The position numbers were made by a program, and so were the translations under genes. From Chitinophagales bacterium (GTDB lineage Bacteria; Bacteroidota; Bacteroidia; Chitinophagales; LD1): a DNA stretch of 64,000 nt. How positions within the stretch are numbered: the stretch's first letter is position 1; every line of letters starts with the position of its first letter. Shown here piece by piece: positions 1 through 60,543 of the stretch. The stretch lies in the NCBI GenBank assembly GCA_046329515.1, contig JAXLUM010000002.1, positions 1,039,113 through 1,103,112 of the forward strand, written 5' to 3'. The notes beneath the pieces were generated by a model. That model had not been told where the DNA came from. It ran no database searches and saw only the letters and a list, made by a program, of their open reading frames with translations.

Positions 1-1
1 G

Positions 2-583
2 ACAGGATACGCCTTTATAATAACTGACGGAGGCTCTGAGGACGCTACCTGTAAAATTGCCAAGCAAGCAGGAATACCGGTGCTTGAAAGACCTGGAATG
101 GGCAAGGGTGCTGGTGTTAAACAGGCTATACAGTATGCACACACTAATAATTTTACCCACTTAGTTACAATTGATTGCGATTTGACCTACCCGGTAGACC
201 GCATACACGACCTTGTTGAGGCCGCAAAAGACAAAGACATGGTAATTGCAGCGCGCAACATGCAAAAAATAAAATGGCTTAATAGGCAGGCTAACTATCT
301 TTTTACCTTTGCCATTAACCTGCTTTATGGAGGCTATTTTCATGACACACAATCCGGTATGCGCATTATTAAATTAGAAGCATTCAATGGCCTGGTGACA
401 GTTGACAACTTTGACATTGAAACGGAGTTAAGCTGCAAAGCACTGGCGCTAAAACTTAAGGTAGGCGAAATACAGGTTGGTTATTATGACAGAATCGGAG
501 AAAGCAAGGTTAGCATTACCGATGCCTTTGTGATTCTCTATCGCATATTCTATTGCCTCTTTACTTCGCCGAAAACGAAATAG
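2..583 (+). CDS. Family 2 glycosyltransferase, polyprenyl-phosphate sugar synthase (Dpm1)-like; 5' end cut by window edge
   Basis: The frame stays open from nt 2 (TGYAFIITDGGSEDAT...), so the DxGSxD-type motif lies upstream of the Met at nt 80. Also has DCDLTYP and a general GT-A/GT2 appearance. Confidence 0.7.
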   Translation, partial: TGYAFIITDGGSEDATCKIAKQAGIPVLERPGMGKGAGVKQAIQYAHTNNFTHLVTIDCDLTYPVDRIHDLVEAAKDKDMVIAARNMQKIKWLNRQANYLFTFAINLLYGGYFHDTQSGMRIIKLEAFNGLVTVDNFDIETELSCKALALKLKVGEIQVGYYDRIGESKVSITDAFVILYRIFYCLFTSPKTK

Positions 584-1226
584 GCAAAAAACCTTGAGGA
601 AGCGCTGTTGATTGCCCACCCAGCAATTCCTGCAAAAAGCGCCCGCACATAGGATGGTGTAATTCATCTTTGGAATAAAAGATTTCGGGCGCCGCAACTT
701 TGCCGGTTCTGCTTATAGCCCTTCGTAGCCGTTCAGAAGATTTAAAAAAAGAATACCTGTCAGATTTTAACAGATGTCGGTCATTCTCCAAGGCCGTAAG
801 TGAGTATCCGAAATTTTCGTCAAAAAAATCCGCCACCGTATTCCCGGGAACGGTGGAAGAAGCTGCTGTTTTAAACTGGAGGTAAACAAAAAATAAATCA
901 GAAACAGTAAGGGCTGCATAAACAGGCACAAAAGACGATTGATATTCCGCAGGGCCCATGAAAATATTTGTTTCAAACGAACGCTCGGACCAATCGATAT
1001 TGGTAAGGTAAACAAGTCCGCACTTGATACCGTTCTGCACAACTAGAAAATATAAATTTTGTTCCGATTGAATTTTTTTAAACCAAGCCATTTGTTGTTC
1101 GGCACTGATGTTTTCGGTGGTAAAAAGCCGGTTATTTACCTGTGGGGAGTTACGCCATTGGCGCACCAATTCAATGTCCCGTTCCGACAAAAGTTGTAAC
1201 TGAAGGCCTAATTGGCGGATATACAT
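561..1226 (-). CDS. GNAT-family N-acetyltransferase (PseH/WecD-like sugar N-acetyltransferase candidate)
   Basis: The N-terminal LSERDIELVRQWRNSPQV motif is typical of PseH-like GNATs. It is the last gene of the long minus-strand operon. Its 3' end overlaps the convergent GT2 by 23 nt. Confidence 0.55.
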   Translation of the reverse strand: MYIRQLGLQLQLLSERDIELVRQWRNSPQVNNRLFTTENISAEQQMAWFKKIQSEQNLYFLVVQNGIKCGLVYLTNIDWSERSFETNIFMGPAEYQSSFVPVYAALTVSDLFFVYLQFKTAASSTVPGNTVADFFDENFGYSLTALENDRHLLKSDRYSFFKSSERLRRAISRTGKVAAPEIFYSKDELHHPMCGRFLQELLGGQSTALPQGFLPISFSAK

Positions 1227-1227
1227 G

Positions 1228-2622
1228 CTATTTGAATTTTACCGAGCCGAACGCCAGCGGTAAGTAAAAACGAACAGTGTTTTTCAAAAAACACAGATTC
1301 TTAAATAATGGCAAGTACCCAACTAAGGTGCGCGGCGAAAAATAAAACTTGAAATAAGCTTTACGGTAAATACGATCCAATTGCGCTCGGCTAATATTGC
1401 CCGGAACATAGACAGGTAACTCCACCTCGCTGCGCATGTATTGTTGCCAAACGTCCGACGAAACTTTACCTTCCTGCACTGCTATTTTAAAAACCTCAAC
1501 ATCCGGCAAAGGAATCATTCGCGTAAAAAGAATGTTGAAGGGCCGCAACTTCATAGCTAGGTTTATAGTCGCCTCCATATCCTGTAAGGTTTCGCCGGGG
1601 TGGCCAAAAATGAAATTGGCCATAGTTTTAATTCCCAACTCGCGGCATAGATCAAACACCTCTTTATAGCGATGATTACTTATTTTTTTGCCCGTTAACG
1701 AGCGTACCTTTTCTGAACCACTCTCCACTCCAAAAGTTATTTTACTGCATCCAGCAGCCTTCATTTGTTTCAGTAATTCCGCATCTACTTTATCGGCACG
1801 CGTTTCGCAGCCCCACTCAAAGTAAAGGCCTTCGGCTTTAATAGCAGCGCACAATTCAAGTATGTGTCGCTTATTAACGGTAAAGGTGAGGTCCATAAAT
1901 TCCACCCATCTTACACCTAAATCTTTTACCAAAAAGCGAAGGCGGGCCATAATGTTTTCGATACTTAAATATCTGTAGTTCATTTGAAAGCCTGAGGCAC
2001 AAAAGTTACACTTATAGGGGCACCCCCTAGTAGTAAATAGCATCATGTAACGACTACTAGTACTGGCAGAGTAATACTTTCCAATGGGTAACAAATCGAA
2101 GGCTGGAATAGGCAGCAAGTTAATGTCACGAATGAAGGCGGGCTCATTTATGATTAGTTTTCCCTTCACATTAATAACTAAACCCTCTAAATCCGAAAGC
2201 ACTTCCTTTCCGGCTTTGATATGTTGGAGCAATCGTGTGAAAGAAAAATCGGCATCACCTCTAAAGCCGTAATCAGCATTTAAATGAGAGACTGCCTTAG
2301 GGTCGGCATTCACATAGTATCCTTCTAAAACAATTTTACTTGATGAAATTTCTTTAATAAATTGTATCAACTTATAAGCGTCAGGCAAGGTGGAAGGGAA
2401 AACGCTTATACAAACCACCGCTGGCCGATGTTGCTGAACCATTCGGGCAATTGTGGCATTATCCGTACCTTCTGCAGCGGGCTCAATAATTTTAACCATT
2501 AAACCTGCTGCGCGGGAAACTGCGGCCCATTCAGCAAGCTTTACATATGGCGAAACGCCCACAAGGTCGCGAGGATTAATAAAAAGGCAGTCTAATTGCT
2601 GCATATCAAAATTCATTAACAA
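1228..2622 (-). CDS. B12-binding (class B) radical SAM enzyme
   Basis: CPYKCNFC (CxxxCxxC 4Fe-4S/SAM motif) preceded by an N-terminal Rossmann-like region of about 150 aa, as in cobalamin-binding domains. An alternative ATG at 2604 would sit 1 nt after the upstream stop. Confidence 0.8.
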   Translation of the reverse strand: MLMNFDMQQLDCLFINPRDLVGVSPYVKLAEWAAVSRAAGLMVKIIEPAAEGTDNATIARMVQQHRPAVVCISVFPSTLPDAYKLIQFIKEISSSKIVLEGYYVNADPKAVSHLNADYGFRGDADFSFTRLLQHIKAGKEVLSDLEGLVINVKGKLIINEPAFIRDINLLPIPAFDLLPIGKYYSASTSSRYMMLFTTRGCPYKCNFCASGFQMNYRYLSIENIMARLRFLVKDLGVRWVEFMDLTFTVNKRHILELCAAIKAEGLYFEWGCETRADKVDAELLKQMKAAGCSKITFGVESGSEKVRSLTGKKISNHRYKEVFDLCRELGIKTMANFIFGHPGETLQDMEATINLAMKLRPFNILFTRMIPLPDVEVFKIAVQEGKVSSDVWQQYMRSEVELPVYVPGNISRAQLDRIYRKAYFKFYFSPRTLVGYLPLFKNLCFLKNTVRFYLPLAFGSVKFK

Positions 2623-3346
2623 TAATACTTCCGTCCAAAAGTGAGCGCATTAAACTCATTGTATCGTGCCCGTACGTTCTATTCATGCGCAAGAACAATT
2701 TAATCAATTTTAAGTTGCTGTATTTACTTTTATGGACTGCTGTCGAGCTAACTTTATAAAAAAGAGGTTCTTTCCCGCAGGCTTTTATCAATTCTATATC
2801 CAAATGTTCGGGAAGATAAAGCCTGTACCTTGTTGCCTGCCATAAACCCGACTTTATCAAACGGAAAGAAGAGCCTGAAGCCGCAAGCCTTCGGCCCGTA
2901 GTTCTTTGAATAAGGCGGTGAACTGCGCGGCTGCCTAATCTTCTCAAAGTCCCGTAGGCGGGCTTTTCGAAGCTGCCATAGGACAAAGAAACATGCTTGC
3001 CTGATTCAAAAAACGGAGCAATGAAAGAAGGTGGGGGGTTAAAATCATCATCTATGGTTAACAGGTATTGGCCCCTTGCCTTTTGCAGACCGACGATAGT
3101 GGCTGCATATTGACCCTTGTTGCCGACGAGATTTAAACACCGGAATGATCCGCCAGAGTTAGCATGCATTTCCGCTAAAAGCGGCCAGGTATTATCAACC
3201 GAGGCGTCATTGACAAGAATGAGTTCTGCCCCTTCGGGGATCGTTTTAAGTGAAGCAATGGCTTCTTTTACCCAATGCTGAATACGGTTACCTGCATTAT
3301 AAACTGGCACCACAACACTTAATACCGGGTTAACATTTAGGCTCAT
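2606..3346 (-). CDS. Family 2 glycosyltransferase
   Basis: VVVPVYNAG ... LVNDASVDNT ... TIDDD motifs. The likely start is the ATG at 3346, which overlaps the upstream TAA by 1 nt (TAATG). Confidence 0.8.
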   Translation of the reverse strand: MSLNVNPVLSVVVPVYNAGNRIQHWVKEAIASLKTIPEGAELILVNDASVDNTWPLLAEMHANSGGSFRCLNLVGNKGQYAATIVGLQKARGQYLLTIDDDFNPPPSFIAPFFESGKHVSLSYGSFEKPAYGTLRRLGSRAVHRLIQRTTGRRLAASGSSFRLIKSGLWQATRYRLYLPEHLDIELIKACGKEPLFYKVSSTAVHKSKYSNLKLIKLFLRMNRTYGHDTMSLMRSLLDGSIIVNEF

Positions 3347-4398
3347 TAAATTTCCAATAGGGGGGTACAACAAAGTTTGTCTACGGGGATAATTGCCGAG
3401 GCAGCCGAAAGCCCTACGCCAAAACCTGCCAAAAGCAGGGTACCCTGTAAATCCGACAGATTTGACCGCAAAGCTGTTATCATGGTTAATGGTATGGATG
3501 CAGAGCTGGTGTTGCCAAAATTAGTAAGCGAGTAGGGAAACTTTTCTTCGGGTATTTTGATTTTTTTACGAAGCGATTCGCAGATAATGCGATTCGCCTG
3601 ATGAAAAACAAAATAGTCTATTGCATCAGTAGGCAAGCTGGCAAAGGTCAAAAGGGACTCTATGTTTTTAACAACACTGCGAAGCGAGAATTCCAAAACC
3701 TTTTGCCCGTTCATATGCGCATGAAGCGAGGTCCTTCTTATTCCTTTTGCCTGACTTTCTTCTTCTAACGAAGATGTTGAGGCAGGCTTACGCGCCCCGC
3801 CCTCCGGTATTATAATAGCATCATAACCATCACCAAATGTTTCAAGGTTAAAGTAAACGCTTCCTGCCGAAGATGAGGCTTCTATTGCTGTGGCAGTACC
3901 AGCATCCCCAATAAGAGGGTAAGTAGATTTGTCGCTATAAGAAACAATGTGCGATGTTTCTCCACAAAGTAACAAGGCCTTTTGCCAACCATACAGTTGA
4001 AGGTATGCCTGAATAGCACTTAAACCATAAACAAAGCCCGAACAACCAAGGTGCAGATCAAATGCTGCACATGAATTCGAAAGCCCTAGCTGTTCTTGTA
4101 TGGCAGCAGCGCCAAAAGGTACAAGATAATCTGGCGTTTGGGTAACAAAAATCAGTAATTCAATTTCTGAAAATGACCAATCCAAATCTTTTACTAGTCT
4201 TTTTGCCGCAATAACACACATATCAGAAGCAGTTAGTCCTAGTGGCGCTTTGCGCAGTGATATTACTCCTACATGCTTTTGGAAATCCTTTCTTTCTGCT
4301 TCTGACGAAAAAGGGTACATAGTTGTATCAAACACTTGGGAAGGTACGGCGGCTGCCGCACCGATAATCTGTATTCCCTTTCCGCGCGCCAAAGGCAT
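3346..4398 (-). CDS. 3-oxoacyl-ACP synthase III (FabH/KASIII-like)
   Basis: Cys-His-Asn triad context: HLGCSGFVYGL, FHQANRII, FGNTSSASIP. TAATG overlap with the ACP gene. Confidence 0.85.
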   Translation of the reverse strand: MPLARGKGIQIIGAAAAVPSQVFDTTMYPFSSEAERKDFQKHVGVISLRKAPLGLTASDMCVIAAKRLVKDLDWSFSEIELLIFVTQTPDYLVPFGAAAIQEQLGLSNSCAAFDLHLGCSGFVYGLSAIQAYLQLYGWQKALLLCGETSHIVSYSDKSTYPLIGDAGTATAIEASSSAGSVYFNLETFGDGYDAIIIPEGGARKPASTSSLEEESQAKGIRRTSLHAHMNGQKVLEFSLRSVVKNIESLLTFASLPTDAIDYFVFHQANRIICESLRKKIKIPEEKFPYSLTNFGNTSSASIPLTMITALRSNLSDLQGTLLLAGFGVGLSAASAIIPVDKLCCTPLLEI

Positions 4399-4634
4399 TA
4401 GTCTGAAATTTTATGGTTAATAAGCGCTGTCAGATCGGCAATGGTTTCAGCCGTTTTCATCTCTTCCGGCGATATAAACACGCCAAACTCAAATTCAATC
4501 ATGGTAGTTACCACTACCGCGTTTATAGAGTTCCAGTTTAGCTTGTCCCGAAACTTTGAATCTGTTCTCAAAGAGTTTTTAGGTAAATCGTCAAACTCTA
4601 GTTCAATTTTTTCTATTAATTGCTCGCTATTCAT
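4398..4634 (-). CDS. Acyl carrier protein
   Basis: 78 aa and acidic, four-helix ACP size. The LNWNSINAV motif sits where the DSL phosphopantetheine serine is expected. Sandwiched between the adenylating enzyme and KASIII. Confidence 0.7.
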   Translation of the reverse strand: MNSEQLIEKIELEFDDLPKNSLRTDSKFRDKLNWNSINAVVVTTMIEFEFGVFISPEEMKTAETIADLTALINHKISD

Positions 4635-4635
4635 A

Positions 4636-6126
4636 TCATTCTTTTATGTCTAATCTTTCAGACTCCTTTAACCGCTTCAATAACTCCTCGCGTTTCATCT
4701 TATAGGAAATGGTAAGCGGTATTGAGTCTCTAAAAGGAAAAATGTAAATGCGCTCTATTTTTTCCGCAGCCTGTAAATTTTTATTACATTTAATTACCCA
4801 AGCTGCGGCCTCCTGTTTTTTAGATTCATCTACATTGTTTAACCATAATAAGGCGCTTAACTTTTGCTCCTCATCGCAACAAACAATAGCGCTATTTACC
4901 TCATTACATTCCATTAGTTTATGTTCAATAAGCTCAGGCAAGATATATAAGCCGTGGGGCCCTTTTAGGATGTTTTTTTTTCTGCCGCATATGGTCAGGT
5001 ACCCTTCAGAGTCTAAAGAAACAATATCGCCTGTTCTAAGATAACCATCTTGTGTGAGTAACTCGGTTGTTGCCGGCTCATTATTTTTATATCCTGTTGT
5101 GTTATTTGGAGCCTTGCATAGCAATTCGCCGTCTGCCTCAATCCGGATGTTTACTTCTTTGGCAACTTGGCCAACAGTACCTGTTTTTTTTGTACCGTAG
5201 TCGTTAAAACTAATTAGGGAAGCTGTTTCTGTTAACCCGTAAACCTCGTATATTATAATTCCCTTTTCCTCAAAGAAAGCACTAGTTGAAGGCGCTAGGG
5301 ATGCACCACCACATATAATAGCCTTTAAAAAACTCGGAAAAATCCCTGTCTCCAAAACCTGGTTCTGAATTTTACGCAATAGAAAGGGTGCCACTGCCAT
5401 GACATCTGGCTTGTAGAAGAGCAGAGATTCCAACTCATTTTGTAAAGGGCTTGGATAACAAATGGTGATACCATTTGCTTTGTAACTGTAATTCAATTTT
5501 CGTTCTCCACTAAAGGAAACGGGCAACAAACTTAGTGCTTTATTGCAATCTTGGAAAAAGCGGGCTTTGGAAAATACGTTAATAGCACTCAGCCAGTTAT
5601 TTCTGCTAAGAATGACACCCTTGGAAACACCCGCGCTACCAGATGTATATATTATTGTTTGTGTGCTTTCCCCTGGTAGTGTCGGCAACCTAAAGCTTTT
5701 CGTTAAAAAAAAAGAAGACTGATATAGGCTATTTAGACCATGTGTACTATGGATAAGAAACATCTCTGACTTAATAGCCGCACTCGTTACTATTTTGCCC
5801 ACTATTCGATAAACGAATTCGTAACCTATAAGAATTAGCTGTGGTTTGTTGTCAGAAATTACTATTCGCATCAAGTCCGCCTCTGCCAGAGGAGGTAAGG
5901 AAACATGCACACTTCCGGACCAATAGCACGCCGCATCAATGATATCCCAATCCGGCCCGTTGGGCAAAATAGTAAGAATGCAGGACACTTTCCTTTCCAT
6001 AAACCCTGCAGCCAAGGCCTGAGCATAAAAACGAAACTCATCGTAATGCATAGACTGTGGTTCTGCGTTACGGAAAAAACGCAGCATAGCACTTTGTCCA
6101 TATTCATTAGCGTAAAGCGTGTTCAT
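4636..6126 (-). CDS. AMP-dependent synthetase/ligase (fatty acyl-AMP or acyl-ACP ligase-like)
   Basis: Adenylation motifs IIYTSGSAGVSKGV, EVYGLTET, LRTGDIV and GRKKNILK. Confidence 0.85.
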   Translation of the reverse strand: MNTLYANEYGQSAMLRFFRNAEPQSMHYDEFRFYAQALAAGFMERKVSCILTILPNGPDWDIIDAACYWSGSVHVSLPPLAEADLMRIVISDNKPQLILIGYEFVYRIVGKIVTSAAIKSEMFLIHSTHGLNSLYQSSFFLTKSFRLPTLPGESTQTIIYTSGSAGVSKGVILSRNNWLSAINVFSKARFFQDCNKALSLLPVSFSGERKLNYSYKANGITICYPSPLQNELESLLFYKPDVMAVAPFLLRKIQNQVLETGIFPSFLKAIICGGASLAPSTSAFFEEKGIIIYEVYGLTETASLISFNDYGTKKTGTVGQVAKEVNIRIEADGELLCKAPNNTTGYKNNEPATTELLTQDGYLRTGDIVSLDSEGYLTICGRKKNILKGPHGLYILPELIEHKLMECNEVNSAIVCCDEEQKLSALLWLNNVDESKKQEAAAWVIKCNKNLQAAEKIERIYIFPFRDSIPLTISYKMKREELLKRLKESERLDIKE

Positions 6127-6128
6127 GT

Positions 6129-7856
6129 TTAATTACTATTTAAGTCAGGATGTCTTTTAATAATATAGTAACTATATGCTTGGTTTCCCCACAAAAATGG
6201 ATTTTTGTAAGAGCGCAGAACACTTTTATTATAAACAGGACAAAAGTTAATGGTGTCATTGTAAAAAAAAACATTCCAGCGGTGTAAAAAGGAAATATTG
6301 TAGGTGTTGTAGATAAATACAACCTGATCTGATTTTTCATTAAGACAATTCAAAATTTTATTTGAGTTAGCAGATCCGCATTTATTGGTCCAGTAATCTA
6401 TGTTGGACTTAAAATGCCTGGATATATAATGAAATGGAAGGACGTATTGATTTTCTTTATTTAGATTTGGAACACAAAATGGGCCTGTGTCTACAAAATA
6501 GGCAGTATATAGGTCAAATAAAATTATTTTATGATTAAAAGAATTTAGCTCCGCTATAAATTTTTGTTTCTGAATCTTGTCTGCCATAAGAAGTTCGCTC
6601 ATCTTTATACAAGCCTTTGCGCGATAAGCGGAGAAACAACATAGGGGAATGACCAATACTACTATATAGATGGACTTCCACTTTTTATTGCTCCAGGCGG
6701 CAAACGTATAAAGATTAAAAACTGTAAGAATAAGTAAATAAGGCCCCAATAAACGATCTTCCATCTTTGCAATTAAAGCAATCAGTAATATTAAAACCCC
6801 AGCTAGTAACCATAAAACTGATAATAATACTGTTTTACGCAAGCCCAACAAAATCGGGCCGAATGCCACAATAAGTACTAGATTTATCATGAAAAGAACA
6901 ATCTCCTTATATAACCAGTTAAAGCATGATTGTCTTCCTTGGTACCTGTCCGCGAATTGAATGAGGTTAAGTGTTTTAAAGTATAGAAACTGTTTGACTT
7001 CAAAATTGTGGGGTTGGGCGTAAAGGTTATGCAGCCAATCTTCTGTTAAAATATCGGCATCAAAATGATTCCAGGTAGTGATGGCTTCAAGCTTCAATTG
7101 TGTAGCAGGATCCTTAATGTCCGAAGAAATTGGCAAAATATAGGCATCTTGTATAAGAGATTCATAAAAAGAGAACTTTCCGAAGTCAATAGTTTCAGAT
7201 GTAGGTAAGGCCCATTTTAACACATTGGACATAAATAGCGGGAGGATTACTACGGGTAATAACCTCTGGATAATAGCCTTTTTGTTTTGGAACCATAACG
7301 CTACCAAAGTAAGAGAGGAAGCTAACAATAGAGTTATGACAGCGATTTCCAGACGGGTTAATAGGCCTAGTAATATACATAAACCTATATAAAGCGCAAA
7401 TGCGGGACCCAGTCTAAACACCATGAGCAAAGTAGCACTGCCAGTGAGCAGACACGCAGCAGTAGTGAAGGTGTTACGCATTATAAACTCCTGCATAAAA
7501 CCACAGAACACCAGAACTCCTGGAACCAGTTGCCACAGGCGCTTTGGTTTTAAAAAAACTAAAAAATTATATGTTACATAAACAAGATTGCAATAGGACA
7601 TTGCTAATAATAAGAAAAGGAAAAAACCATACCAAGATACACCGGGGACTGTCTTATAAAGGCCAATTAGAATAAAAGACAATCCTATAAAATAATCGGG
7701 ATTTAGGACATGTTTAGGCTCGTAGATGCCTGCCATCAAATTAGCCATTAAAGTATCGTCCAGCCACCCAACATACAAACCGGTGCGTAATGAGAAGATA
7801 AGCGAAAACAATATACACCCCCCCAAAAAATAGACGTACCTGAATTTTATTGGCAT
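6129..7856 (-). CDS. Large polytopic membrane protein with C-terminal soluble domain (GT-C-like architecture, function unknown)
   Basis: About 400 aa of repeated hydrophobic helices followed by a Cys/Asn-rich soluble tail of about 170 aa. AT-rich codon usage. Confidence 0.4.
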   Translation of the reverse strand: MPIKFRYVYFLGGCILFSLIFSLRTGLYVGWLDDTLMANLMAGIYEPKHVLNPDYFIGLSFILIGLYKTVPGVSWYGFFLFLLLAMSYCNLVYVTYNFLVFLKPKRLWQLVPGVLVFCGFMQEFIMRNTFTTAACLLTGSATLLMVFRLGPAFALYIGLCILLGLLTRLEIAVITLLLASSLTLVALWFQNKKAIIQRLLPVVILPLFMSNVLKWALPTSETIDFGKFSFYESLIQDAYILPISSDIKDPATQLKLEAITTWNHFDADILTEDWLHNLYAQPHNFEVKQFLYFKTLNLIQFADRYQGRQSCFNWLYKEIVLFMINLVLIVAFGPILLGLRKTVLLSVLWLLAGVLILLIALIAKMEDRLLGPYLLILTVFNLYTFAAWSNKKWKSIYIVVLVIPLCCFSAYRAKACIKMSELLMADKIQKQKFIAELNSFNHKIILFDLYTAYFVDTGPFCVPNLNKENQYVLPFHYISRHFKSNIDYWTNKCGSANSNKILNCLNEKSDQVVFIYNTYNISFLHRWNVFFYNDTINFCPVYNKSVLRSYKNPFLWGNQAYSYYIIKRHPDLNSN

Positions 7857-7875: not shown

Positions 7876-9204
7876 TCATGACAAAATGAAACTAGGCAAG
7901 CTGTGATTTGCCCCTCTCAGAAATCTTTTTAACTCAGCTTGCTGAAGTTTAAAACTAAAGATAACAAGAACAAGGGGATAGATGAAATTGAGAAAATAGA
8001 CAAGCGGATGAATATGGCCGCTCATAGATATGCCATCTCTTGTTTGAAGGATATTGTAAACTATCCAGGGTTGACGGCCAGCCTCCGAAACTACGCCGCC
8101 TATAATAGATACTAATTGGACCAGTATATATGAGCCTATTGATAAGGTAAAAACGCGCCTATAATTACCACGCCTCACCAAAACGCAGGACCACGCCCAA
8201 AGTCCTAGCAATACTACCCAGCCCAATAGCATTGCCCTAAAGCAATAAAACACTACTGCCACATTAGGTTTGTCTTCAGATTTAAAGCTGTTTAGGGGTC
8301 TCAGTGGAGTAAAGCTTGCATTCATTTTCTGTTCAATAAAGGCAGGCAGGTGAATACCCAACGTAATCGTCAATGTTTCATCAGTTGTAGCCATTAGATA
8401 ATAATGAGGAGGTTCCGAAGACGAATAATAACCTTCAATAGCACTGGCCTTGGCAGGCTGGTATTGGGCTATAATATCAAACTGTATATGCCCAAGTATT
8501 GGCTGTAAAAATAAGCAAACGAATATAAGGCCGAGGTATGTTCTGATCAGAGTCGATGCGCCTTGAGCACGCACCTCTTTTTGCCCCACCCTTGCCAGTA
8601 CCGTACAATAAAAAGCAAAACCGGCTATCAGCCCACCTGTATACAGATGAGCAAGTTTGGGAATACAGGAGGCATTTAAAATAAAATTCCTTAGGCTGAC
8701 AATATGAACAGAGAGTCCAGCTGGAGTATTCGTAAATACAGTGCCGGCCGGTGTATGCATCCAAGCGTTTACAATAAGAGTCCATGCGCTAAAGCAAATT
8801 GAGAAAATGAAAAGCACTAACACAATAAATATGCTAAGGCCTAGGGGCAATACTGGTTCGCGTAAGAGAAAGAACAACAAAAAAGCCGTTCCGAAAAAGG
8901 AAACAAGGGCAATACGGCCAAACGGGTGGTTAATTAAGGGCCCCAAAACATGCTCAGCTGCCGACCAGTTTTCGCCCAATTGTAAATCAAGTACGATTCC
9001 GGAGAAGGTTGCAATGCAGAATTGAATAGTGTAAAGTTTTACAAAAAGAGAGAATAAACCATGGTGGCCTTCGCCGGGTCTGCGGCGAGTGAAGATGGCA
9101 AGCACCAATAATCCTATTGCGCTGCCCGGTAACGCAGCAGTTAATGCTTGATGAATGGCGAGGCTGCTTCCGAACAGAGAACGAGCCAAAATCTCCTTAT
9201 CCAC
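7876..9204 (-). CDS. Cytochrome bd ubiquinol oxidase subunit I (CydA)-like protein, orphan (no cydB)
   Basis: GRQPWIVY signature, N-terminal His (LAIHQAL), KLAHLYTGG His context, and the QPAKASAIEGYY Q-loop Lys/Glu motif. 442 aa, so a short Q-loop. Confidence 0.7.
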   Translation of the reverse strand: MDKEILARSLFGSSLAIHQALTAALPGSAIGLLVLAIFTRRRPGEGHHGLFSLFVKLYTIQFCIATFSGIVLDLQLGENWSAAEHVLGPLINHPFGRIALVSFFGTAFLLFFLLREPVLPLGLSIFIVLVLFIFSICFSAWTLIVNAWMHTPAGTVFTNTPAGLSVHIVSLRNFILNASCIPKLAHLYTGGLIAGFAFYCTVLARVGQKEVRAQGASTLIRTYLGLIFVCLFLQPILGHIQFDIIAQYQPAKASAIEGYYSSSEPPHYYLMATTDETLTITLGIHLPAFIEQKMNASFTPLRPLNSFKSEDKPNVAVVFYCFRAMLLGWVVLLGLWAWSCVLVRRGNYRRVFTLSIGSYILVQLVSIIGGVVSEAGRQPWIVYNILQTRDGISMSGHIHPLVYFLNFIYPLVLVIFSFKLQQAELKRFLRGANHSLPSFILS

Positions 9205-9422: not shown

Positions 9423-10427
9423 TCAATTGGGTCCCCGTCCTCCGGTGCTCTTGCGCACACCATCGCTATCTTTTATCAGCTTAGCAGAGGGTATGTAATC
9501 TTGGCCGGAGACAAAAACTACGCCTCCCACCATCAATAATGTCAGCTGAAAAAAGAAGTGCAGCAAGGGTACCTGGAGGGCAGCTTCTGTGTTTAGGTTC
9601 ATAAATTTTAAATAAAGGAAAAACGAAGTTTCCATTAAACCAAGCCCCTCGTAACTTATAGGCAAACTGGCACTTAAATAGAAAAAGGGAATGCCCACGA
9701 GAAACTGCCCGGCATTATAAAAATCGAACCCTAAACCACTCAGGGCCAACAAAATAAACACGGTTAGCAGCCCTCCGAGAAAAGACGAAACAGATGACAC
9801 CAATAAGATGCGGCCATTTGAGCGGGCGGATGTTACTTCCTCTAAAACCACATCGAAAGAGGGGATTAGCTTTTGTAGTGGCCGGCGAAAAACTCTCGCT
9901 AAAAATCTTAAAATGCTCTTGTAAAAAGGCAGCGTAAGCAAAAGGAGAAAAAAGAAAAAAAGATAAGCATATAGCGGATGATAATAGTTGGTTACACCTC
10001 CAAGCAGCAAAAGAAAAAATCCCAAAGCAAGAGCAGCCCCTAACCCTAATGTTGCACCAATACGGTCCAGCAAAAGTCCATTAACTGCAACCGCTGCAGG
10101 AATTTCGTGTTTACGCAAAAACAAAAAACGGAAAAGGTCCTCGGAGCCGGGGATAGGTAAAAACAGCATTAAAAACCATGTTCGGTAAGCCATTATTATG
10201 GCGCTTCGCAGCCGGAGTTTATACCCCTGCAAGCGAGCGCAGTAGTACAATCGCAATCCGAGCAAAATATTTTTAAGATGAAACAGCACGAATGCCAATG
10301 CAATAAGGGAAAACCTTATTTGTATTTGTGCCTGGTTTATTTTGCGCAACTGAAAATGATAAATAAGCCAAAGCACAAGCCCAAACAGCAATAGTTTGAT
10401 AAGTATTGAGGAGCATCGGGCATTCAT
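9423..10427 (-). CDS. Polytopic membrane protein, UPF0104 / LPG-synthase-TM (flippase-like) candidate
   Basis: About 8 TM helices at about 330 aa. Size, topology and a GT2-neighbour context are typical of this family. No diagnostic motif was recognised. Confidence 0.4.
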   Translation of the reverse strand: MNARCSSILIKLLLFGLVLWLIYHFQLRKINQAQIQIRFSLIALAFVLFHLKNILLGLRLYYCARLQGYKLRLRSAIIMAYRTWFLMLFLPIPGSEDLFRFLFLRKHEIPAAVAVNGLLLDRIGATLGLGAALALGFFLLLLGGVTNYYHPLYAYLFFFFLLLLTLPFYKSILRFLARVFRRPLQKLIPSFDVVLEEVTSARSNGRILLVSSVSSFLGGLLTVFILLALSGLGFDFYNAGQFLVGIPFFYLSASLPISYEGLGLMETSFFLYLKFMNLNTEAALQVPLLHFFFQLTLLMVGGVVFVSGQDYIPSAKLIKDSDGVRKSTGGRGPN

Positions 10428-10459: not shown

Positions 10460-11536
10460 CTATCTCACCTTATTGTGTATCCTTGGTAAGGTTGCCAGAT
10501 AGGCGTAAATAGATAAAACTTCTTTATCGGTGAGTAAATAAAATGGCTGCATGGGGTCGCGGACCGTTTTGCCATCAGGCTTTATTCCGTTTTTAACCGT
10601 CCGTAAAAATTCCGTTTCCGACCATTTCCCTATTCCGGTTTCCTCATCAAAGGTTATGTTCGATGAATATATTTCTCCATGTTCACTATTTGTATGCTTT
10701 GCGCCGCCTGCAAAAAAGTTGTCCGACCTCTCCGGAAAATCATTGTGGTAGTTGCCTACTAAATCATTGGAGTGACACTCGTAACAGGAAAACTTTCGCG
10801 GTGCCAGGTATCTGCCAAATTCTATTGGATTGTTTGTGTCCGGCGGCAAAATAGCTGCCGTTGCATAAGCGTAAGGCCTTAACAGTGTGCGCGCAAAAAT
10901 TTTAACCACAGGGTTAATAGGCTCAGGGGCCACAGGTTTATTTACTGCCCGCACCAATGAATCATCAGAGCGCAGAAAAGCTATAATTGAACCAAGATCG
11001 TCATTACTAAGGCCGGGATACTTAGGCATATCGTAAACATAATAGCCATCGGGCTTTATGCCTGTGCGTAGAAAAAATGCCAGTTGCCCTGTGGACCACC
11101 GCCCTATTCCTGTTGCGGAATCCGCCGTAATATTAGAGGCAAAATTATCCCCTATACTTCCGGGGTTGGCCACATCTCCGCCAGCCAGGGTATTTGTTTG
11201 TGCATCATAATGGCATTTAATACACATCATGAGAACTATCCGGCGGCCTTCTTTTAGATGTGCCGAATCGTTACTGTAAGTAAACACCGGCGATAAAGCC
11301 TCATATTTTGGCAAAGGCAAAATTGCCAAAACAACTAAAACAAGCAGCAACACTGCCACTAAACCCAAAGCCGAAAAGAGAATGATCCTGAACCGGAATT
11401 TCAAAATGCAATGCGTAATATAGCTGCTAAATAAGTGAATAAAATCAGCAGATCCCTGCCTTTGGGCCGGGCCCCAAAAAATGAATTTTCTGCATGCAAA
11501 ATAGGTTTCATGGCTTTGTGGCGCTGGTGGTTTCAA
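10460..11536 (-). CDS. Membrane-anchored diheme c-type cytochrome
   Basis: Two CxxCH motifs (CIKCH, CYECH) and one N-terminal TM helix (IILFSALGLVAVLLLVLVVLAIL). No in-frame ATG lies upstream of the helix. The track start is a TTG, so the start is uncertain. Confidence 0.75.
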   Translation of the reverse strand: MKPPAPQSHETYFACRKFIFWGPAQRQGSADFIHLFSSYITHCILKFRFRIILFSALGLVAVLLLVLVVLAILPLPKYEALSPVFTYSNDSAHLKEGRRIVLMMCIKCHYDAQTNTLAGGDVANPGSIGDNFASNITADSATGIGRWSTGQLAFFLRTGIKPDGYYVYDMPKYPGLSNDDLGSIIAFLRSDDSLVRAVNKPVAPEPINPVVKIFARTLLRPYAYATAAILPPDTNNPIEFGRYLAPRKFSCYECHSNDLVGNYHNDFPERSDNFFAGGAKHTNSEHGEIYSSNITFDEETGIGKWSETEFLRTVKNGIKPDGKTVRDPMQPFYLLTDKEVLSIYAYLATLPRIHNKVR

Positions 11537-13146
11537 TGCTTATGCATGTTGTCGTGCACATAAGCTGCGGGTTTTATTATGAAACCGGCTCTATGACCTA
11601 CCTGAAAAATGTGGTAGCCGGCACCTTTACCAGTACTCCGCAGATAATACCCAGGGCATTTGGCGCCCATACCGGTTTTTCAGATTTATACATATGGCTT
11701 TATCAGCATTGCCCCGGATGGGAATGGCATGACATATTTATGCTGGGTTTTTCAGTTGCTGGCCTTGCTCTTTTAATAATGGCTCTTTACGCCGCCATCA
11801 GGCACTCGCTTAGTGAGCGTAAGAGCAACACAACAATTTTTGTATGGGCACTAATTGCCAGCGTAGCGTTTTATGCTGATAATTTATTGCAAACGGAGCT
11901 TACCCGCTCCTCTATAACCATTGCATTCAGCGCATTCTTCCTGCTGGTTTTTGAGGCCAGAAAATGGTGGCATTACTTGCTGCTGAATGTTATTCTGGTA
12001 TCGGCAACCCTTATCAGGACAGAAGTTTTTGGGTTTTCAGTTATGCTTATCCTTCCGGCTGTTTTAGCGGGAGCAGGACTAAAACGTTTGGTTTACTGCC
12101 TAACGCCTACGTTGATTTTATATGTGGTTTTCCTGGTAGCAATTAATGCGGGACTAACTGCCGAGGAACGCGCTTACCTCGCCTTCAGGCCCTACCAGTT
12201 TATTTTACTGGATTACGAGATCAAAAAAGAAGTTCCGTTTGAAAGCCCACAGGATTCTATGGCAATTTTACTTGCTAAAAACGGCTTTTGGTGCGATGAA
12301 GGAGTAATCGATGAAAAACTATTCCGAAAGTATTATTTACCACTGGATAAAATCCCCTCCAACTTTTTCAACTATCTTAAAGCAGTTGATTGGAAGCCGC
12401 ACACGCTTATTAAAAAAGCCATGCGTGTAAGTACCCGCTATTATATATTGCTGCTTTTGCCCCTGTTGCTGTTATCACTTCAAACCATAGCTAAAAGCAG
12501 GGGGCCGTGGCTTTCGCTTCCGCTCGTACTCTATTACGCAGTTCTACTGGCAGGGTTATTGGTTTTTATTAAAATTGAAGACAGGGTTCTTTATCCTGCG
12601 CTAATCGCCTTCCTGGTTTTATCGCTACGTATTTGCAGTGCCTGTTTTTTACAACTGTATCTGCTTGTAGCCATAGTGGTGTGCTGTATTATTGCCGGCT
12701 TTGGGTATAAGCAAATGCAGGAAACCCGTGACATTGATGATTATATGCGCAGGCTTGAAAAAACTCTTGAAAAACAGCCGGCAGGCAGCGTGGCGGTGTA
12801 CGATTTAAAAGCTGTTACTGATTACGGACTAAAACTTAGTTTGAAGCGCCAATCGCCTGCTATAAAAAAGGCAAGTATAGACAATGGCTTATTGCATCTG
12901 AACACACAACTGCAAAAGGATAATCTGCAAACTTTTGGCAACGATAAGTGCGCGGACATGATAGCCGGAACCGCCACCGACAGTAGTTTTGTTTGGGTTA
13001 GTTGCGAGGGACGCATGAAACTGATTTTAGCCTATATGCGCATTGTGCATGGACTATCAATGCACTATGTGGTGTTGGACAATTTTGGCGCGGTAAAGAA
13101 TGAGAATGTTTATCCCCGCATTATGCGCTTATATTTGGATAATTAA
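11494..13146 (+). CDS. Large polytopic membrane protein with C-terminal soluble domain (GT-C-like architecture)
   Basis: About 11 hydrophobic helices followed by a soluble tail of about 140 aa. The start is uncertain, with alternatives at 11536, 11542 and 11593. The 11494 start would overlap the divergent cytochrome c ORF. Confidence 0.4.
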   Translation: MQNRFHGFVALVVSMLMHVVVHISCGFYYETGSMTYLKNVVAGTFTSTPQIIPRAFGAHTGFSDLYIWLYQHCPGWEWHDIFMLGFSVAGLALLIMALYAAIRHSLSERKSNTTIFVWALIASVAFYADNLLQTELTRSSITIAFSAFFLLVFEARKWWHYLLLNVILVSATLIRTEVFGFSVMLILPAVLAGAGLKRLVYCLTPTLILYVVFLVAINAGLTAEERAYLAFRPYQFILLDYEIKKEVPFESPQDSMAILLAKNGFWCDEGVIDEKLFRKYYLPLDKIPSNFFNYLKAVDWKPHTLIKKAMRVSTRYYILLLLPLLLLSLQTIAKSRGPWLSLPLVLYYAVLLAGLLVFIKIEDRVLYPALIAFLVLSLRICSACFLQLYLLVAIVVCCIIAGFGYKQMQETRDIDDYMRRLEKTLEKQPAGSVAVYDLKAVTDYGLKLSLKRQSPAIKKASIDNGLLHLNTQLQKDNLQTFGNDKCADMIAGTATDSSFVWVSCEGRMKLILAYMRIVHGLSMHYVVLDNFGAVKNENVYPRIMRLYLDN

Positions 13147-13159
13147 GCACGCGGCACCC

Positions 13160-14818
13160 ATGCGTTTCACTGTACCCGAGAAATATAAGCTGCCGGCACT
13201 TTTTATTGCATTCCTTCTGATTTACGGGAGCTACTTCTGCTATTTTGGTATTCATGGGTTACTTCCCGGTCAAATCGATGTGTGGTATAACCTGGGAGTG
13301 TTACGCGAATATGCCAACCACATCAACCATCTGTTTTTTAATACCCCGGTTGGTATGGCCAATTATCCTGAAGGGCACATTTACCTGAATGGAGAGCCCT
13401 CCTTTTTAAGCGGCATGTTGTTTTGGGTGCTGTCTTTACTAATGAACGACCTGTGGGCTTATCTCGCTATGTGCGCTTTATTCTTTACGCTTAACAGTTT
13501 CTTTCTCTCGTTGTATTTAAGGCGTTTGTTGAATAGCCATTTATCAATAACTTTTATAAGCGGCTTAGCTTTTAGTTTAAGCGCGTTTAACCTGGGCCTG
13601 CTCGATAATTTTGTCTACGGCATTTTCTTCCCTTTTTTCGGGGCTTTGTTGTTACTGGAAAAATGGTGCACCGACAGAAAAACGGCTCAACTGCTGATAG
13701 CAGTGCTATTGCTCAATCTTGAAATCTACTTTTCGGTTTATAATTTTTTTATGGGCTATTTAGTGCTGGCGGTGTGGCTGGTGGTTTATTTCCCTCGCGA
13801 GCGTAAAACATTTGCTGTGCTGGCGCTGTCATTTATTTCGCTGCCGCTTATTTTTCCCTATGTATATCTTTTCATTCTTCATCCAAGTATCCTCCCGGAA
13901 TACCGTGATTTTTTTACCCCCCAAATAATCGCCGGTTTTAGCTTTAAGGGAGCGGACCTTCTGCGCTCTTTTCAAAGCAACCCCATCTATGGTGGCATGG
14001 TAAACGGTGGTGATCGATTACAGAACTACTGGCACATGGGCAACATAGGCCTTGTTTCATTTGCATTTGCTTTAGCAGGCTGGGCACTTGCCGATAAAAA
14101 ATTAAAGTGGTTAACCGGGTCTCTTATAATAACGGGTATGCTGTTTTGTATCGGGCCCTATTGGGGCAGTAGCCAGGTAAAAGCTCCCTTTTATTATTTG
14201 CACCAATGGTTACCCTTGCTGGCAGGCTTTAAAATGATATTCAAGTTTTATTACCTGGTGTTGCTTTGCCTGGTGATATGCCTTACGGTTTTCGTAAACC
14301 GCGTGGTAAAATTGATGCACCATAAATTCAGGGTACCTGTATCGTTGCTATGCGCAATAGTGTTTTTATCAGAGAACCTGCCTCTTAATTTTTCGGAATA
14401 CGTATTACCCTACAGCCAGCTTCAGCTAAATAAAGCGTTAAGAGAAAATGAAAGCGGAAGCATATTGATTTTGCCCTCTTTTGCTCCCGTAAGTAGTAAT
14501 ACCGAGTGTTTTGTTAAAGGCAGAGGCTATGAGTACCGCTATTACTACCTGGCATATCACTCGCACATTAACCTTTTAAATGGTTCTAGTTCCTTTGTGC
14601 CCGCCTCCCGAAAAACTGTAGATAGCCTTCTTTATCAATTACCTATGAATGAATCCCTTTTCATCCTTCGTAAACAATTCGGATTAACGGCAATTGTATT
14701 CGATAAAAGCAGCACCTTAAGTTGCAGCCCCTACTCTCTTGAGGAATTAAAAACCTTGCTTAACACAACCTATGAAGACAGCGCTTTTGCGTTATTTGAT
14801 TTAACGGCTCAACCGTAA
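13160..14818 (+). CDS. Large polytopic membrane protein with C-terminal soluble domain (YfhO/GT-C-like architecture)
   Basis: Many TM helices plus a soluble C-terminus. The ATG at 13160 avoids the 47-nt overlap that the track start at 13100 creates. Confidence 0.4.
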   Translation: MRFTVPEKYKLPALFIAFLLIYGSYFCYFGIHGLLPGQIDVWYNLGVLREYANHINHLFFNTPVGMANYPEGHIYLNGEPSFLSGMLFWVLSLLMNDLWAYLAMCALFFTLNSFFLSLYLRRLLNSHLSITFISGLAFSLSAFNLGLLDNFVYGIFFPFFGALLLLEKWCTDRKTAQLLIAVLLLNLEIYFSVYNFFMGYLVLAVWLVVYFPRERKTFAVLALSFISLPLIFPYVYLFILHPSILPEYRDFFTPQIIAGFSFKGADLLRSFQSNPIYGGMVNGGDRLQNYWHMGNIGLVSFAFALAGWALADKKLKWLTGSLIITGMLFCIGPYWGSSQVKAPFYYLHQWLPLLAGFKMIFKFYYLVLLCLVICLTVFVNRVVKLMHHKFRVPVSLLCAIVFLSENLPLNFSEYVLPYSQLQLNKALRENESGSILILPSFAPVSSNTECFVKGRGYEYRYYYLAYHSHINLLNGSSSFVPASRKTVDSLLYQLPMNESLFILRKQFGLTAIVFDKSSTLSCSPYSLEELKTLLNTTYEDSAFALFDLTAQP

Positions 14819-16467: not shown

Positions 16468-17339
16468 GCCTGCCCGAAAAGGCGTAACAGCTTTTGTTTA
16501 AATCCCTCCGGCTCAGGTTCCAGCTGAAGGTCTTTCATGCTTATCTGGCCGAAGGAATAATCCCACTCCTGCACCGGTTGCATATTTACAGGTAACTTAC
16601 CATCGTTGTTTTTCATCAGGTAGTCCAGTTCAATCTGAAAGCCCTGTATTTTTTTCCGGTTTTCATTCCAAAAATAAACCATCATAGGGGCACCTGCCGA
16701 AGTTAACGCACAGGAGGTCGCAATGCGGGGCTCGGTAGAATGATTTTCGCGTGAGCAATGAACTGCCCGGTGGTCATACAACAATGCATCGCCGGCATTC
16801 AGCAACAATTCGGTGCACTCTTTCCAGAAATATTCACGCAAGTCCACGGTTTGATCCGGAATGTTAGGCCCGCGGAAAATATTACGAATGTTGTGGCTGC
16901 CTTTTAAAACCTGCAAAGGTCCGTTTTCCTTAGTAAGCTTAACAAGCGGTATCCATAAATTAAACGAGCGGAATTCGTCTTCGTTTACAATGCCATAATC
17001 AATATGCGGTTGAGAAGCCCCTTTGCCCAAAGGCGGTTTAATTACAAACGAGCCCCCGAAAATCTGGTAGTTAGCGAACACCTCGCTGCAGGGGGGGGTA
17101 TATACCTCTATGATCTTGGCAATCGTGCGCACTTTATAGTCCTCATCGCGGGTATGCCACACCGAATTAATAATATGCTCCGCATGAAACTCGGGCTGAT
17201 TGTTGCGGTTATATTCAAGTAACTCAGCCACGCGTTCAGGCGAAAGAAATTTTTTCAATACCAGATAGCCATCGTCCAGCAACTGTTTTTCCAGTCGCTT
17301 GTCCTTCATTATTGGCGGAAACTGTTTTTTAACCTTCAT
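16464..17339 (-). CDS. PhyH-family Fe(II)/2-oxoglutarate dioxygenase (paralog A)
   Basis: PHIDYG (HxD) ... NGPLQVLKGSH ... AVHCS ... PRIA. N-terminal DDGYLVLKKFL motif. Confidence 0.8.
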   Translation of the reverse strand: MKVKKQFPPIMKDKRLEKQLLDDGYLVLKKFLSPERVAELLEYNRNNQPEFHAEHIINSVWHTRDEDYKVRTIAKIIEVYTPPCSEVFANYQIFGGSFVIKPPLGKGASQPHIDYGIVNEDEFRSFNLWIPLVKLTKENGPLQVLKGSHNIRNIFRGPNIPDQTVDLREYFWKECTELLLNAGDALLYDHRAVHCSRENHSTEPRIATSCALTSAGAPMMVYFWNENRKKIQGFQIELDYLMKNNDGKLPVNMQPVQEWDYSFGQISMKDLQLEPEPEGFKQKLLRLFGQA

Positions 17340-20100: not shown

Positions 20101-20136
20101 AATACAATATTGCAGGCAGCCACTGAAGAAATAAGC

Positions 20137-20907: not shown

Positions 20908-20912
20908 GGCTG

Positions 20913-23139: not shown

Positions 23140-23148
23140 GGCGGCAAA

Positions 23149-25864: not shown

Positions 25865-25873
25865 AGCTGCGGG

Positions 25874-27838: not shown

Positions 27839-27849
27839 ACACCCTTATT

Positions 27850-28767: not shown

Positions 28768-28772
28768 ACATT

Positions 28773-60324: not shown

Positions 60325-60543
60325 TGCATTCGGGTTTGTGGGAAAAGGATGGAAAGGGCAACCAAATTCCACAAAACCCGTTTGCATTATTATTAGAAGA
60401 TGCCTTTGCTGCTATGAGAATGTACCGGTGGAAACACCGGTTTTTAGCCCGGTTGACCTATTTACTAAACTTATGATTATCAACTGTTAAAACTCATTCG
60501 GCCGGGGCTTGGTCAAATGCTATTAAATACCAAACTTTAGGCG

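Follow-up and report, generated by a model that had tools for sequence, protein, structure and literature searches.

A translationally coupled acyl carrier, glycosyltransferase and radical SAM gene set of Bacteroidota that may place an N-acylated amino sugar on a lipid carrier

We analysed a stretch of 64,000 nucleotides from a Chitinophagales bacterium (GenBank assembly GCA_046329515.1, contig JAXLUM010000002.1, positions 1,039,113 to 1,103,112 of the forward strand; this whole stretch is called the window) and followed up an annotation made from the letters alone (called the sequence-only reading), which had drawn attention to a string of biosynthetic genes at its left end. Six minus-strand genes running from position 6126 down to 561 encode, in this order, an adenylate-forming ligase, an acyl carrier protein (ACP), a condensing enzyme of the beta-ketoacyl-ACP synthase III type (KASIII), a family 2 glycosyltransferase (GT2), a radical SAM protein (called rSAM1 for simplicity) and a GNAT N-acyltransferase, with junctions of -1 to +2 nt. 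This gene set is a real, rare unit of Bacteroidota. We give an even chance to the proposal that its six coupled genes form the centre of a rare pathway of Bacteroidota in which a custom acyl group would be attached to a 4-amino-4,6-dideoxyhexose and the sugar placed on a lipid carrier. The family assignments and the conservation are established, and every chemical step is one that we infer. The six genes are the following:

4636 to 6126, minus strand: adenylate-forming ligase, 496 amino acids (Pfam AMP-binding, 129.5 bits)
4398 to 4634, minus strand: dedicated acyl carrier protein, 78 amino acids (PP-binding, 25 bits against a cut-off of 20.8)
3346 to 4398, minus strand: KASIII-type condensing enzyme, 350 amino acids (ACP_syn_III_C, 84.5 bits; ACP_syn_III, 50.5 bits)
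2606 to 3346, minus strand: GT2 glycosyltransferase of the ArnC/GtrB type, 246 amino acids (Glycos_transf_2, 69.5 bits)
1228 to 2604, minus strand: rSAM1, a radical SAM protein of class-B architecture with the motif CPYKCNFC, 458 amino acids (Radical_SAM, 99.6 bits)
561 to 1226, minus strand: PseH-like GNAT N-acyltransferase, 221 amino acids (Acetyltransf_3, 29 bits)

The string from the ligase to the radical SAM gene, with TAATG overlaps at 4398 and 3346, had been described in the sequence-only reading and is borne out by the sequence and by Pfam. Read from the sequence, the ACP and KASIII genes as well as the KASIII and GT2 genes overlap in TAATG, the ligase and ACP genes are joined by TGA, 1 nt and ATG, and the same spacing separates the GT2 from the rSAM1 gene; the rSAM1 and GNAT genes are joined by TAG, 1 nt and ATG, and a gene for a 575-residue membrane protein precedes the ligase gene with TAA, 2 nt and ATG. 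The true starts of the GT2 and of rSAM1 are the ATG codons at 3346 and 2604, respectively, the longest open reading frames (ORFs) starting earlier in both cases; the start at 2604 matches the NCBI call P0121 (identical protein) and the orthologues. KASIII, like rSAM1, is 100% identical to an NCBI entry from a metagenome-assembled Chitinophagales genome. Each gene of the operon has orthologues of 28-60% identity in the same neighbourhood at other loci, which shows that these genes are real.

The family of rSAM1 consists of about 47 clusters of 45-56% identity and is sharply set off, the next match being 38% and most others at most 34% identical. Its source-named members come from metagenome-assembled genomes of Bacteroidota (Chitinophagales and Flavobacteriales), the others being metagenome sequences, and only two orthologues were among the 80 best matches of a pattern-based scan of 185,579 species-representative genomes. 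Ten further loci with an rSAM1 orthologue (L001, L009 to L014 and L095 to L097) were searched with the proteins of the window, and 78 loci (L015 to L092, 1.24 Mb) around distant radical SAM relatives of 23-33% identity served as the control. Homologues of the ligase and of KASIII were located within 10 kb of the rSAM1 orthologue in nine of the ten loci. The GNAT was likewise present in nine, either by tblastn or as a Pfam-annotated gene (in L011 by looser blastp and its position in the gene table). The carrier protein was detected by tblastn in five loci, and the other four cassette-bearing loci have a small ORF between ligase and KASIII. A GT2 is annotated in the gene tables of all ten, five of which are detected by tblastn with the GT2 of the window; its distance to rSAM1 in L012 is about 9 kb. 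No homologue of the ligase, the ACP, KASIII, the GNAT, the cassette GT2 or the cytochrome c described below was present in any of the 78 control loci. The association of the gene set is thus functional and not accidental (nine of ten orthologue loci, none of 78 controls), and the same recurrence supports the earlier notion that ligase, ACP and KASIII form a dedicated unit, which allows for no more than one condensation locally and is tied to a radical SAM enzyme and a GT2. The order of the genes is shuffled among the loci, GT2 followed by rSAM1 being adjacent in the window, L009, L011 and L095. A protein of 220 amino acids without a family is encoded between rSAM1 and ligase in L096 (5749-6411), L014 (8510-9172) and L010 (12895-13557) and is absent from the window.

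Genes of glycan synthesis accompany the set: RmlA/RmlB-like genes, DegT and GT2s in L001; FdtA, two DegT genes and a carbamoyltransferase in L011; a PglF-like dehydratase, DegT and PIG-L in L014; GT4 and UbiA in L013; and Wzy_C in L012. In the loci examined the cassette was never found apart from glycan genes, in line with the link that had been drawn between the two. A literature search found no published work on this gene combination.

In the acyl cassette, the ligase scores best with the NCBIfam model of a subfamily of long-chain fatty-acid ligases (137.6 bits, cut-off 476), closely followed by MenE (about 117 bits) and malonyl-CoA synthase (111.8 bits), both far below their cut-offs; the best match in the PDB is MenE (E 1.7e-19), and homologues of 28-44% identity are present in nine of the ten related loci. 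The phosphopantetheine serine of the ACP is Ser36 in a WNS motif, and this serine motif is kept in nine carrier proteins of the related loci. Both Pfam domains of KASIII exceed their cut-offs, and a Burkholderia KASIII (PDB 4efi) matches with E 6e-56, PqsD and BioZ also being among the PDB matches. The catalytic triad is intact (C112, H244 and N274 of E. coli FabH align with the Cys of LGCSGF, the His of FHQAN and the Asn of FGNTSS), and Cys, His and Asn are present in the enzyme of the window and in its eight homologues from related loci (9/9). KASIII reached 207.2 bits with the FabH model PRK09352 (cut-off 249) and 174.3 bits with TIGR00747 (cut-off 292.1). As both cut-offs were missed, it is not the housekeeping FabH, and this assignment was dropped. 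Two further candidates were rejected: olefin or beta-lactone synthesis of the OleA/OleC type, given the presence of an ACP and the absence of OleB and OleD, and a flexirubin or dialkylresorcinol DarB, which scored 28-32 bits only and lacks genes for DarA, ketosynthase (KS), ketoreductase (KR) or dehydratase (DH). The sequence-only reading had seen no KR, DH, enoyl reductase or second KS nearby, and the scan of the ORFs from 1 to 31 kb agrees with it. A ligase or a coenzyme A (CoA) donor combined with a KASIII, a single condensation and no reductive cycle are features shared with PqsA/PqsD and BioZ; in contrast to the cassette, PqsA/PqsD and BioZ serve the formation of quinolones or biotin, work with CoA or the housekeeping ACP and are unconnected with sugars.

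KASIII might instead act as an acyltransferase without condensation, passing an ACP-bound acid straight to the sugar, with the GNAT carrying out an ordinary N-acetylation elsewhere. KASIII-like acyltransferases exist (CerJ, ChlB6 and DpsC), the ACP-docking arginines R36 and R249 of E. coli FabH are not conserved in KASIII, the enzyme scores below the FabH cut-offs and its gene is always located beside a glycosyltransferase. Against this stands the full triad, including the Asn of decarboxylation, in all nine sequences, while the known acyltransferase variants replace Asn or Cys. A second argument comes from a wider and much larger Bacteroidota KASIII family (48-50% identity), the context of which was followed in two arrangements only, ACP-like/KASIII/GT2/GNAT and ACP/KASIII/ketoreductase/GT2. 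The KASIII-GT2 pair persists in both, and a ketoreductase directly after KASIII is sensible only with a beta-keto product. We therefore consider transfer without condensation to be quite unlikely.

The destination of the acyl group is suggested by three proteins. The sequence-only reading had gone without the GNAT, the WecE-class aminotransferase and the ArnC-like character of the GT2. In the PDB the GT2 matched ArnC (9hwj, E 1.3e-15, residues 9-222), GtrB (1.3e-10) and DPMS (5e-6), and its DDD motif is found at residue 99. The best solved relative of the GNAT is PseH (4xpk, E 3e-6), which acetylates a 4-amino-4,6-dideoxy sugar; with the PseH model TIGR03585 it reached 57.9 bits, below the cut-off of 93.1. 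Two further genes belong to this context:

29687 to 30859, plus strand: WecE-class dTDP-4-amino-4,6-dideoxyhexose transaminase of the DegT family (NCBIfam)
1 to 583, plus strand: 3' part of a second polyprenyl-phosphate-type GT2 (222 amino acids in full), starting 85 nt before the window

The transaminase passes both curated cut-offs (479.2 against 375 bits and 475.6 against 434.85 bits). The second GT2 scored 114 bits with the AglJ model and 100.5 bits with that of a dolichyl-phosphate hexose transferase. A contig of the same genome (L093) extends the window by 1866 nt at its left edge, and just beyond the second GT2 it carries a second DegT gene (DesI model, 216 bits, below the cut-off). Taken together, the GNAT, the WecE-class aminotransferase and the ArnC-like GT2 point to an amino sugar on polyprenyl phosphate as the acyl destination, and the likely product, as predicted from these families, is an N-acyl-4-amino-4,6-dideoxyhexose on polyprenyl phosphate. 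In the wider KASIII family, the KASIII-adjoining GT2s of L004 and L006 carry two C-terminal transmembrane helices as in GtrB and ArnC.

The window encodes a second radical SAM protein:

14866 to 16467, plus strand: rSAM2, a radical SAM protein with a B12 domain and the motif CPYRCSFC, 533 amino acids (Radical_SAM, 77.9 bits; B12-binding, 73.6 bits)

The two had been taken for paralogs. They are 24% identical over 391 residues and belong to different families, which makes a close paralogy wrong, and this assignment was rejected. While the family of rSAM1 is small, that of rSAM2 is large and diffuse (2275 representatives at E<=1e-30, with identity declining smoothly from 52%). rSAM2 is 28% identical to a radical SAM protein of 499 amino acids that adjoins rSAM1 in L009, L012 and L013, and a third radical SAM family of about 440 amino acids occurs in L011 and L012. 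The reading of both as B12-dependent radical SAM enzymes holds as regards the CPYKCNFC and CPYRCSFC motifs and the B12-type domains; rSAM1 only just passes the B12-binding cut-off (34.6 against 32.1 bits), and its cobalamin dependence is not secure. Neither protein reached the curated cut-offs of HemN, BchE, HpnJ, HpnR, PhpK or AprD4: rSAM1 scored 137 bits with HpnJ (cut-off 577.6), 126.2 with BchE (481), 106.8 with AprD4 (500), 71.2 with HpnR (650) and 26.4 with HemN (325), and the scores of rSAM2 were similar or lower (HpnJ, 117.6 bits). HpnJ is the best NCBIfam model for both. Membership in a housekeeping family, which the sequence-only reading had named as a possible objection, is thus not indicated, neither protein coming near the cut-offs of HemN, BchE or HpnJ.

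The AlphaFold2 model of rSAM1 (predicted local distance difference test score, pLDDT, 89.6) aligns over its full length with class-B structures. The best fold match is AprD4 (template-modelling score 0.74/0.75), followed by TsrM, MgmA, OxsB, CysS and TokK, and AprD4 is also the best solved relative by sequence (PDB 6fd2, E 4e-25, 21% identity). AprD4 has the same N-terminal domain, is not known to use cobalamin and dehydrates an amino sugar diol. rSAM1 resembles it in fold and in size; it differs by its low identity and its score of about a fifth of the cut-off, and no AprD3-like reductase partner was identified. Besides CxxxCxxC, four more cysteines (C252, C266, C286 and C320) are invariant in 23 members of the rSAM1 family, possibly as a second metal site. 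Of the 78 distant rSAM1 relatives, 18 (23-31% identity, from many phyla) have a DegT gene at a distance of 0.4-8 kb, in most cases on their own strand. In Azospirillum doebereinerae (L081, 7731-12185) a DegT gene is followed by genes for an epimerase, the radical SAM protein, an NTP transferase and the E1 alpha and beta subunits, which looks like an operon for branching of a nucleoside diphosphate (NDP) sugar. A sugar substrate for rSAM1 is favoured by these contexts and by the fact that AprD4 and HpnJ act on amino sugars. Radical chemistry such as C-methylation had been proposed earlier. With a marginal B12 score and AprD4 as the nearest solved relative, C-methylation is one option only; as distant relatives are often found beside sugar aminotransferases, sugar chemistry is as likely, and deoxygenation or rearrangement of the sugar is equally open.

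A related proposal, which is that of the sequence-only reading, keeps the sugar pathway and assigns both radical SAM proteins to cobalamin-dependent C-methylation of the ACP-bound acyl chain. The class-B architecture of both, the solid B12-binding score of rSAM2 and the occurrence of two to three different class-B enzymes per cluster are consistent with it. The fold neighbours of rSAM1 include the methylases TsrM, MgmA, CysS and TokK, of which CysS and TokK were crystallised with pantetheinylated substrates, and N-acyl groups that are hydroxylated and C-methylated have been found on viosamine and Qui3N (PMC10609480). For rSAM1, the marginal B12 domain and the proximity to AprD4 in both sequence and fold argue against this assignment. 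Moreover, its gene is translationally coupled to the GT2 and not to the ACP, and its distant relatives are found in NDP-sugar operons without an ACP. The earlier statement that no cobalamin riboswitch or transporter is nearby stands (Rfam at the gathering threshold detects only a tRNA, and no such transporter family is present in any scanned ORF of the window), and the window contains no cobalamin synthesis gene either. We regard methylation of the acyl chain by both enzymes as improbable.

Between the operon and the transaminase gene, the following genes for membrane proteins, oxygenases and an exporter were found:

6129 to 7856, minus strand: polytopic membrane protein, 575 amino acids, about seven transmembrane helices and a C-terminal soluble domain, candidate GT-C-type glycosyltransferase
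9423 to 10427, minus strand: membrane protein of the LPG_synthase_TM family, 334 amino acids (PF03706, 73.3 bits), candidate flippase or GT2 partner
11494 to 14818, plus strand: two polytopic membrane proteins of 550 and 572 amino acids (11494-13146 and 13100-14818) of no known family
16464 to 29591, minus strand: ten PhyH-type domains of iron- and 2-oxoglutarate-dependent (Fe/2OG) oxygenases, a CMAS-like methyltransferase and a Wzm/Wzt-like ABC exporter
20110 to 20907, plus strand: WelO5-like oxygenase with H-C-E instead of HxG

All three polytopic proteins of 550-575 amino acids have C-terminal soluble domains. The 575-residue protein is nearly an orphan, with one match (36% identity) in a database of 5.8 billion proteins, and is a distant paralogue of the protein encoded at 11494-13146 (21% identity, E 4e-6); the two proteins encoded at 11494-14818 have homologues in L001, L009 and L095. 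The LPG_synthase_TM protein is also present in L011 and L012, and no flippase of the GtrA, MATE or ArnE/F type was found among the scanned families. The PhyH set, which is crowded around the exporter and the methyltransferase, consists of six single-domain and two double-domain proteins with 22-30% mutual identity (16464-28767), all of which keep HxD...H except the protein at 27850-28767 (H-Q-N). With H-C-E in place of HxG, the WelO5-like protein looks like a hydroxylase rather than a halogenase, and the halogenase role was dropped. The combination of oxygenase, methyltransferase and exporter adjoins the cassette in L009 and L095 as well, and L009 has a PhyH-methyltransferase fusion. Proteins of the LpxO family (Asp_Arg_Hydrox) occur in six loci and FA_hydroxylase in L001, the window having PhyH instead. 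These LpxO-family and FA_hydroxylase companions, together with the PhyH proteins of the window and the fusion of L009, speak in favour of the oxygenases acting on the acyl chain.

The same surroundings bear on the question of whether the pathway ends in a free glycolipid or aminocyclitol lipid instead of a decorated surface polysaccharide, with the GT2 acting like HpnI, rSAM1 catalysing an HpnJ-like ring contraction or rearrangement and the LPG_synthase_TM protein in the role of HpnL. A GT2, a class-B-type radical SAM protein and an LPG_synthase_TM protein in one cluster mirror the hpnI/J/L gene set, HpnJ is the best model for both radical SAM proteins, hydroxylases of the lipid type (LpxO family, FA_hydroxylase and PhyH) lie nearby and the best model of the ligase is a fatty-acid one. 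The likeness is limited, as the HpnJ scores amount to about a quarter of the cut-off, the GT2 has no match to the HpnI model and is closest to ArnC, no hopanoid genes or other obvious genes for a lipid acceptor are present, and the acyl cassette and the amino-sugar genes are added. A Wzm/Wzt-type exporter, Wzy_C, a GT4 and the large polytopic proteins furthermore accompany the set, and we assign only a small chance to a free glycolipid. A fatty-acylated and hydroxylated ribosomal peptide, lipidated by the GNAT and tailored by radical SAM and Fe/2OG enzymes, is hardly credible and was dropped: among the NCBIfam models, that of ApyD, an enzyme of such peptides, ranks second for rSAM1 (132.4 bits), and proteins of the Asp/Asn beta-hydroxylase family and an ABC exporter are present, but that score is far under the cut-off of 750, no precursor peptide, protease or peptide recognition protein was seen, and the conserved companions are sugar-nucleotide genes, GT2s of the polyprenyl-phosphate type and a Wzm/Wzt-type exporter.

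Two genes for haem proteins are interspersed with those of the membrane proteins:

7876 to 9204, minus strand: cytochrome bd subunit-I-like protein, 442 amino acids, eight transmembrane helices (Cyt_bd_oxida_I, 197.6 bits), without a CydB partner
10460 to 11536, minus strand: membrane-anchored dihaem cytochrome c (CIKCH and CYECH), start codon uncertain

The cytochrome bd-like protein and the cytochrome c are encoded inside the operon in the window, in L014 (11411-13559) and in L096 (9921-12053). Homologues of the cytochrome c (36-55% identity) are found in L010, L012, L014 and L096, alone in L010 and L012. Four loci have a glutathione-peroxidase gene along with rSAM1, namely L013 (6616-7863), L009 (11416-11943), L095 (11412-11942) and L097 (5462-6703); in L013 the peroxidase is fused to an ArnC-like GT2, and in L097 it is followed by a gene with a faint CMD (AhpD-family) match. 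This points to peroxide handling within the pathway. A preprint describes CydA-like proteins that lack the quinol site and are paired with other electron donors (bioRxiv 10.1101/2021.01.16.426971). Our guesses are that the haem proteins protect the radical SAM enzymes from oxygen or serve as an electron sink. To our knowledge, no role in glycan synthesis has been assigned to a pair of a cytochrome bd-like protein and a dihaem cytochrome c.

In the pathway proposed for the six genes and their companions, the WecE-class transaminase, whose family membership follows from curated cut-offs, would provide an NDP-4-amino-4,6-dideoxyhexose, while the ligase would charge the dedicated ACP with a carboxylic acid, either an unusual primer or malonate. 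KASIII, with its intact triad and no reductive enzymes encoded locally, would then carry out one decarboxylative Claisen condensation to a beta-ketoacyl-ACP, the PseH-like GNAT would transfer the acyl group to the 4-amine of the sugar, and the ArnC-like GT2 would load the N-acyl sugar onto polyprenyl phosphate. rSAM1 is predicted to remodel the sugar by radical chemistry, which may be an AprD4- or HpnJ-like deoxygenation or rearrangement or, if the protein binds cobalamin, a C-methylation. The LPG_synthase_TM protein would possibly flip the lipid-linked donor, and the large polytopic proteins would then add it, in the extracytoplasmic space, to the glycan that leaves the cell through the Wzm/Wzt-like exporter. 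Hydroxyl and methyl groups may be introduced by the Fe/2OG oxygenases (PhyH here, LpxO-family proteins elsewhere), the methyltransferase and the further radical SAM enzymes.

Several observations weigh against this proposal. The best NCBIfam model of the GT2 is ArnC with 69.8 bits, far under the cut-off of 529, and no transmembrane helix was found in it (hydropathy maximum 1.03), unlike in ArnC and GtrB. A decisive family is absent for the ligase, and we infer its loading of the ACP rather than of CoA. The GNAT could use plain acetyl-CoA as its donor. The assignment of the polytopic proteins as GT-C enzymes has no match to a Pfam, NCBIfam or PDB-sequence profile behind it, and the AlphaFold2 model of the 575-residue protein, built from three sequences, has a pLDDT of 36 and no usable fold. 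L012 contains rSAM1 without the cassette within 10 kb. The cytochrome bd-like, cytochrome c and peroxidase companions are unaccounted for, and all source-named records that bear an orthologue are metagenome-assembled genomes, with no cultured organism among them.

The nearest precedent, judged by gene content, is the O-polysaccharide locus of Flavobacterium psychrophilum (wfpC-wfpG), whose genes, among them those of a dedicated ACP, two KS, a KR and an acyltransferase, predict the attachment of 3,5-dihydroxyhexanoyl to UDP-Qui2NAc4N (PMC6519341). Both are Bacteroidota glycan loci with their own ACP, ketoacyl synthase and N-acyltransferase and with a 4-aminotransferase for a 4-amino-4,6-dideoxy sugar. 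In contrast to that locus, the operon studied here has a single KASIII, no ketoreductase and an added adenylating ligase, its acyltransferase is a GNAT instead of a PglD-type enzyme, and the cassette is tied to an ArnC-like GT2, radical SAM enzymes and Fe/2OG oxygenases. With the Arn pathway (ArnB, ArnA, ArnC and ArnT) it shares a DegT-type 4-aminotransferase and, as proposed, N-acylation of an amino sugar and its transfer to polyprenyl phosphate by a GT2 that is closest to ArnC; the acyl source would be an ACP cassette here and is formyl-tetrahydrofolate there. Three-component extracytoplasmic glycosylation by GtrB, a flippase and a GT-C enzyme is an established route (PMC11127046) to which the proposed lipid-carrier part bears a likeness, and large polytopic proteins with a C-terminal soluble domain are encoded near the operon. 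Unlike in both the Arn and the three-component systems, the GT2 lacks the two transmembrane helices, GtrA, MATE or ArnE/F proteins are missing and the membrane proteins are only candidate GT-C enzymes. What is new is the fixed association of a ligase-primed single-condensation cassette with an ArnC-like GT2 free of transmembrane helices, the rSAM1 family and oxygenases.

Outside the cluster, the window encodes a caspase-domain peptidase of 491 amino acids (47265-48740) and a bacterial alpha-2-macroglobulin of 1491 amino acids (55912-60387), and type IX secretion sorting domains are found elsewhere in it.

In many surface polysaccharides of bacteria, 3- or 4-amino-6-deoxy sugars bear odd N-acyl groups, among them 3,5-dihydroxyhexanoyl and tri-methylated hydroxy-pyroglutamoyl (PMC10609480). 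The respiratory-type haem proteins and the peroxidases are embedded in a glycan operon, and no current model explains them. A tentative and somewhat unlikely extension of the proposed pathway would include them: rSAM1, as an AprD4/HpnJ-like enzyme, and up to eleven Fe/2OG oxygenases would turn a lipid-linked N-(beta-ketoacyl)-4-amino-6-deoxyhexose into a heavily oxidised, branched surface sugar, while the cytochrome bd-like oxidase, the dihaem cytochrome c and the thiol peroxidases of the operon would sustain the oxygen-sensitive radical chemistry in an aerobe or take up the electrons of an oxidation in the periplasm. If this is true, proteins of the respiratory type would be linked to glycan tailoring in a new way. 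The rSAM1 family is a small and sharply bounded radical SAM family without a characterised member, the nearest relatives of which all act on amino sugars. We know of no biochemically shown route to odd N-acyl groups such as those mentioned above, and the operon offers a compact, testable gene set for their chemistry, which may comprise a ligase, a carrier, one condensation, transfer by the GNAT, loading onto a lipid and tailoring by radical SAM enzymes and oxygenases.

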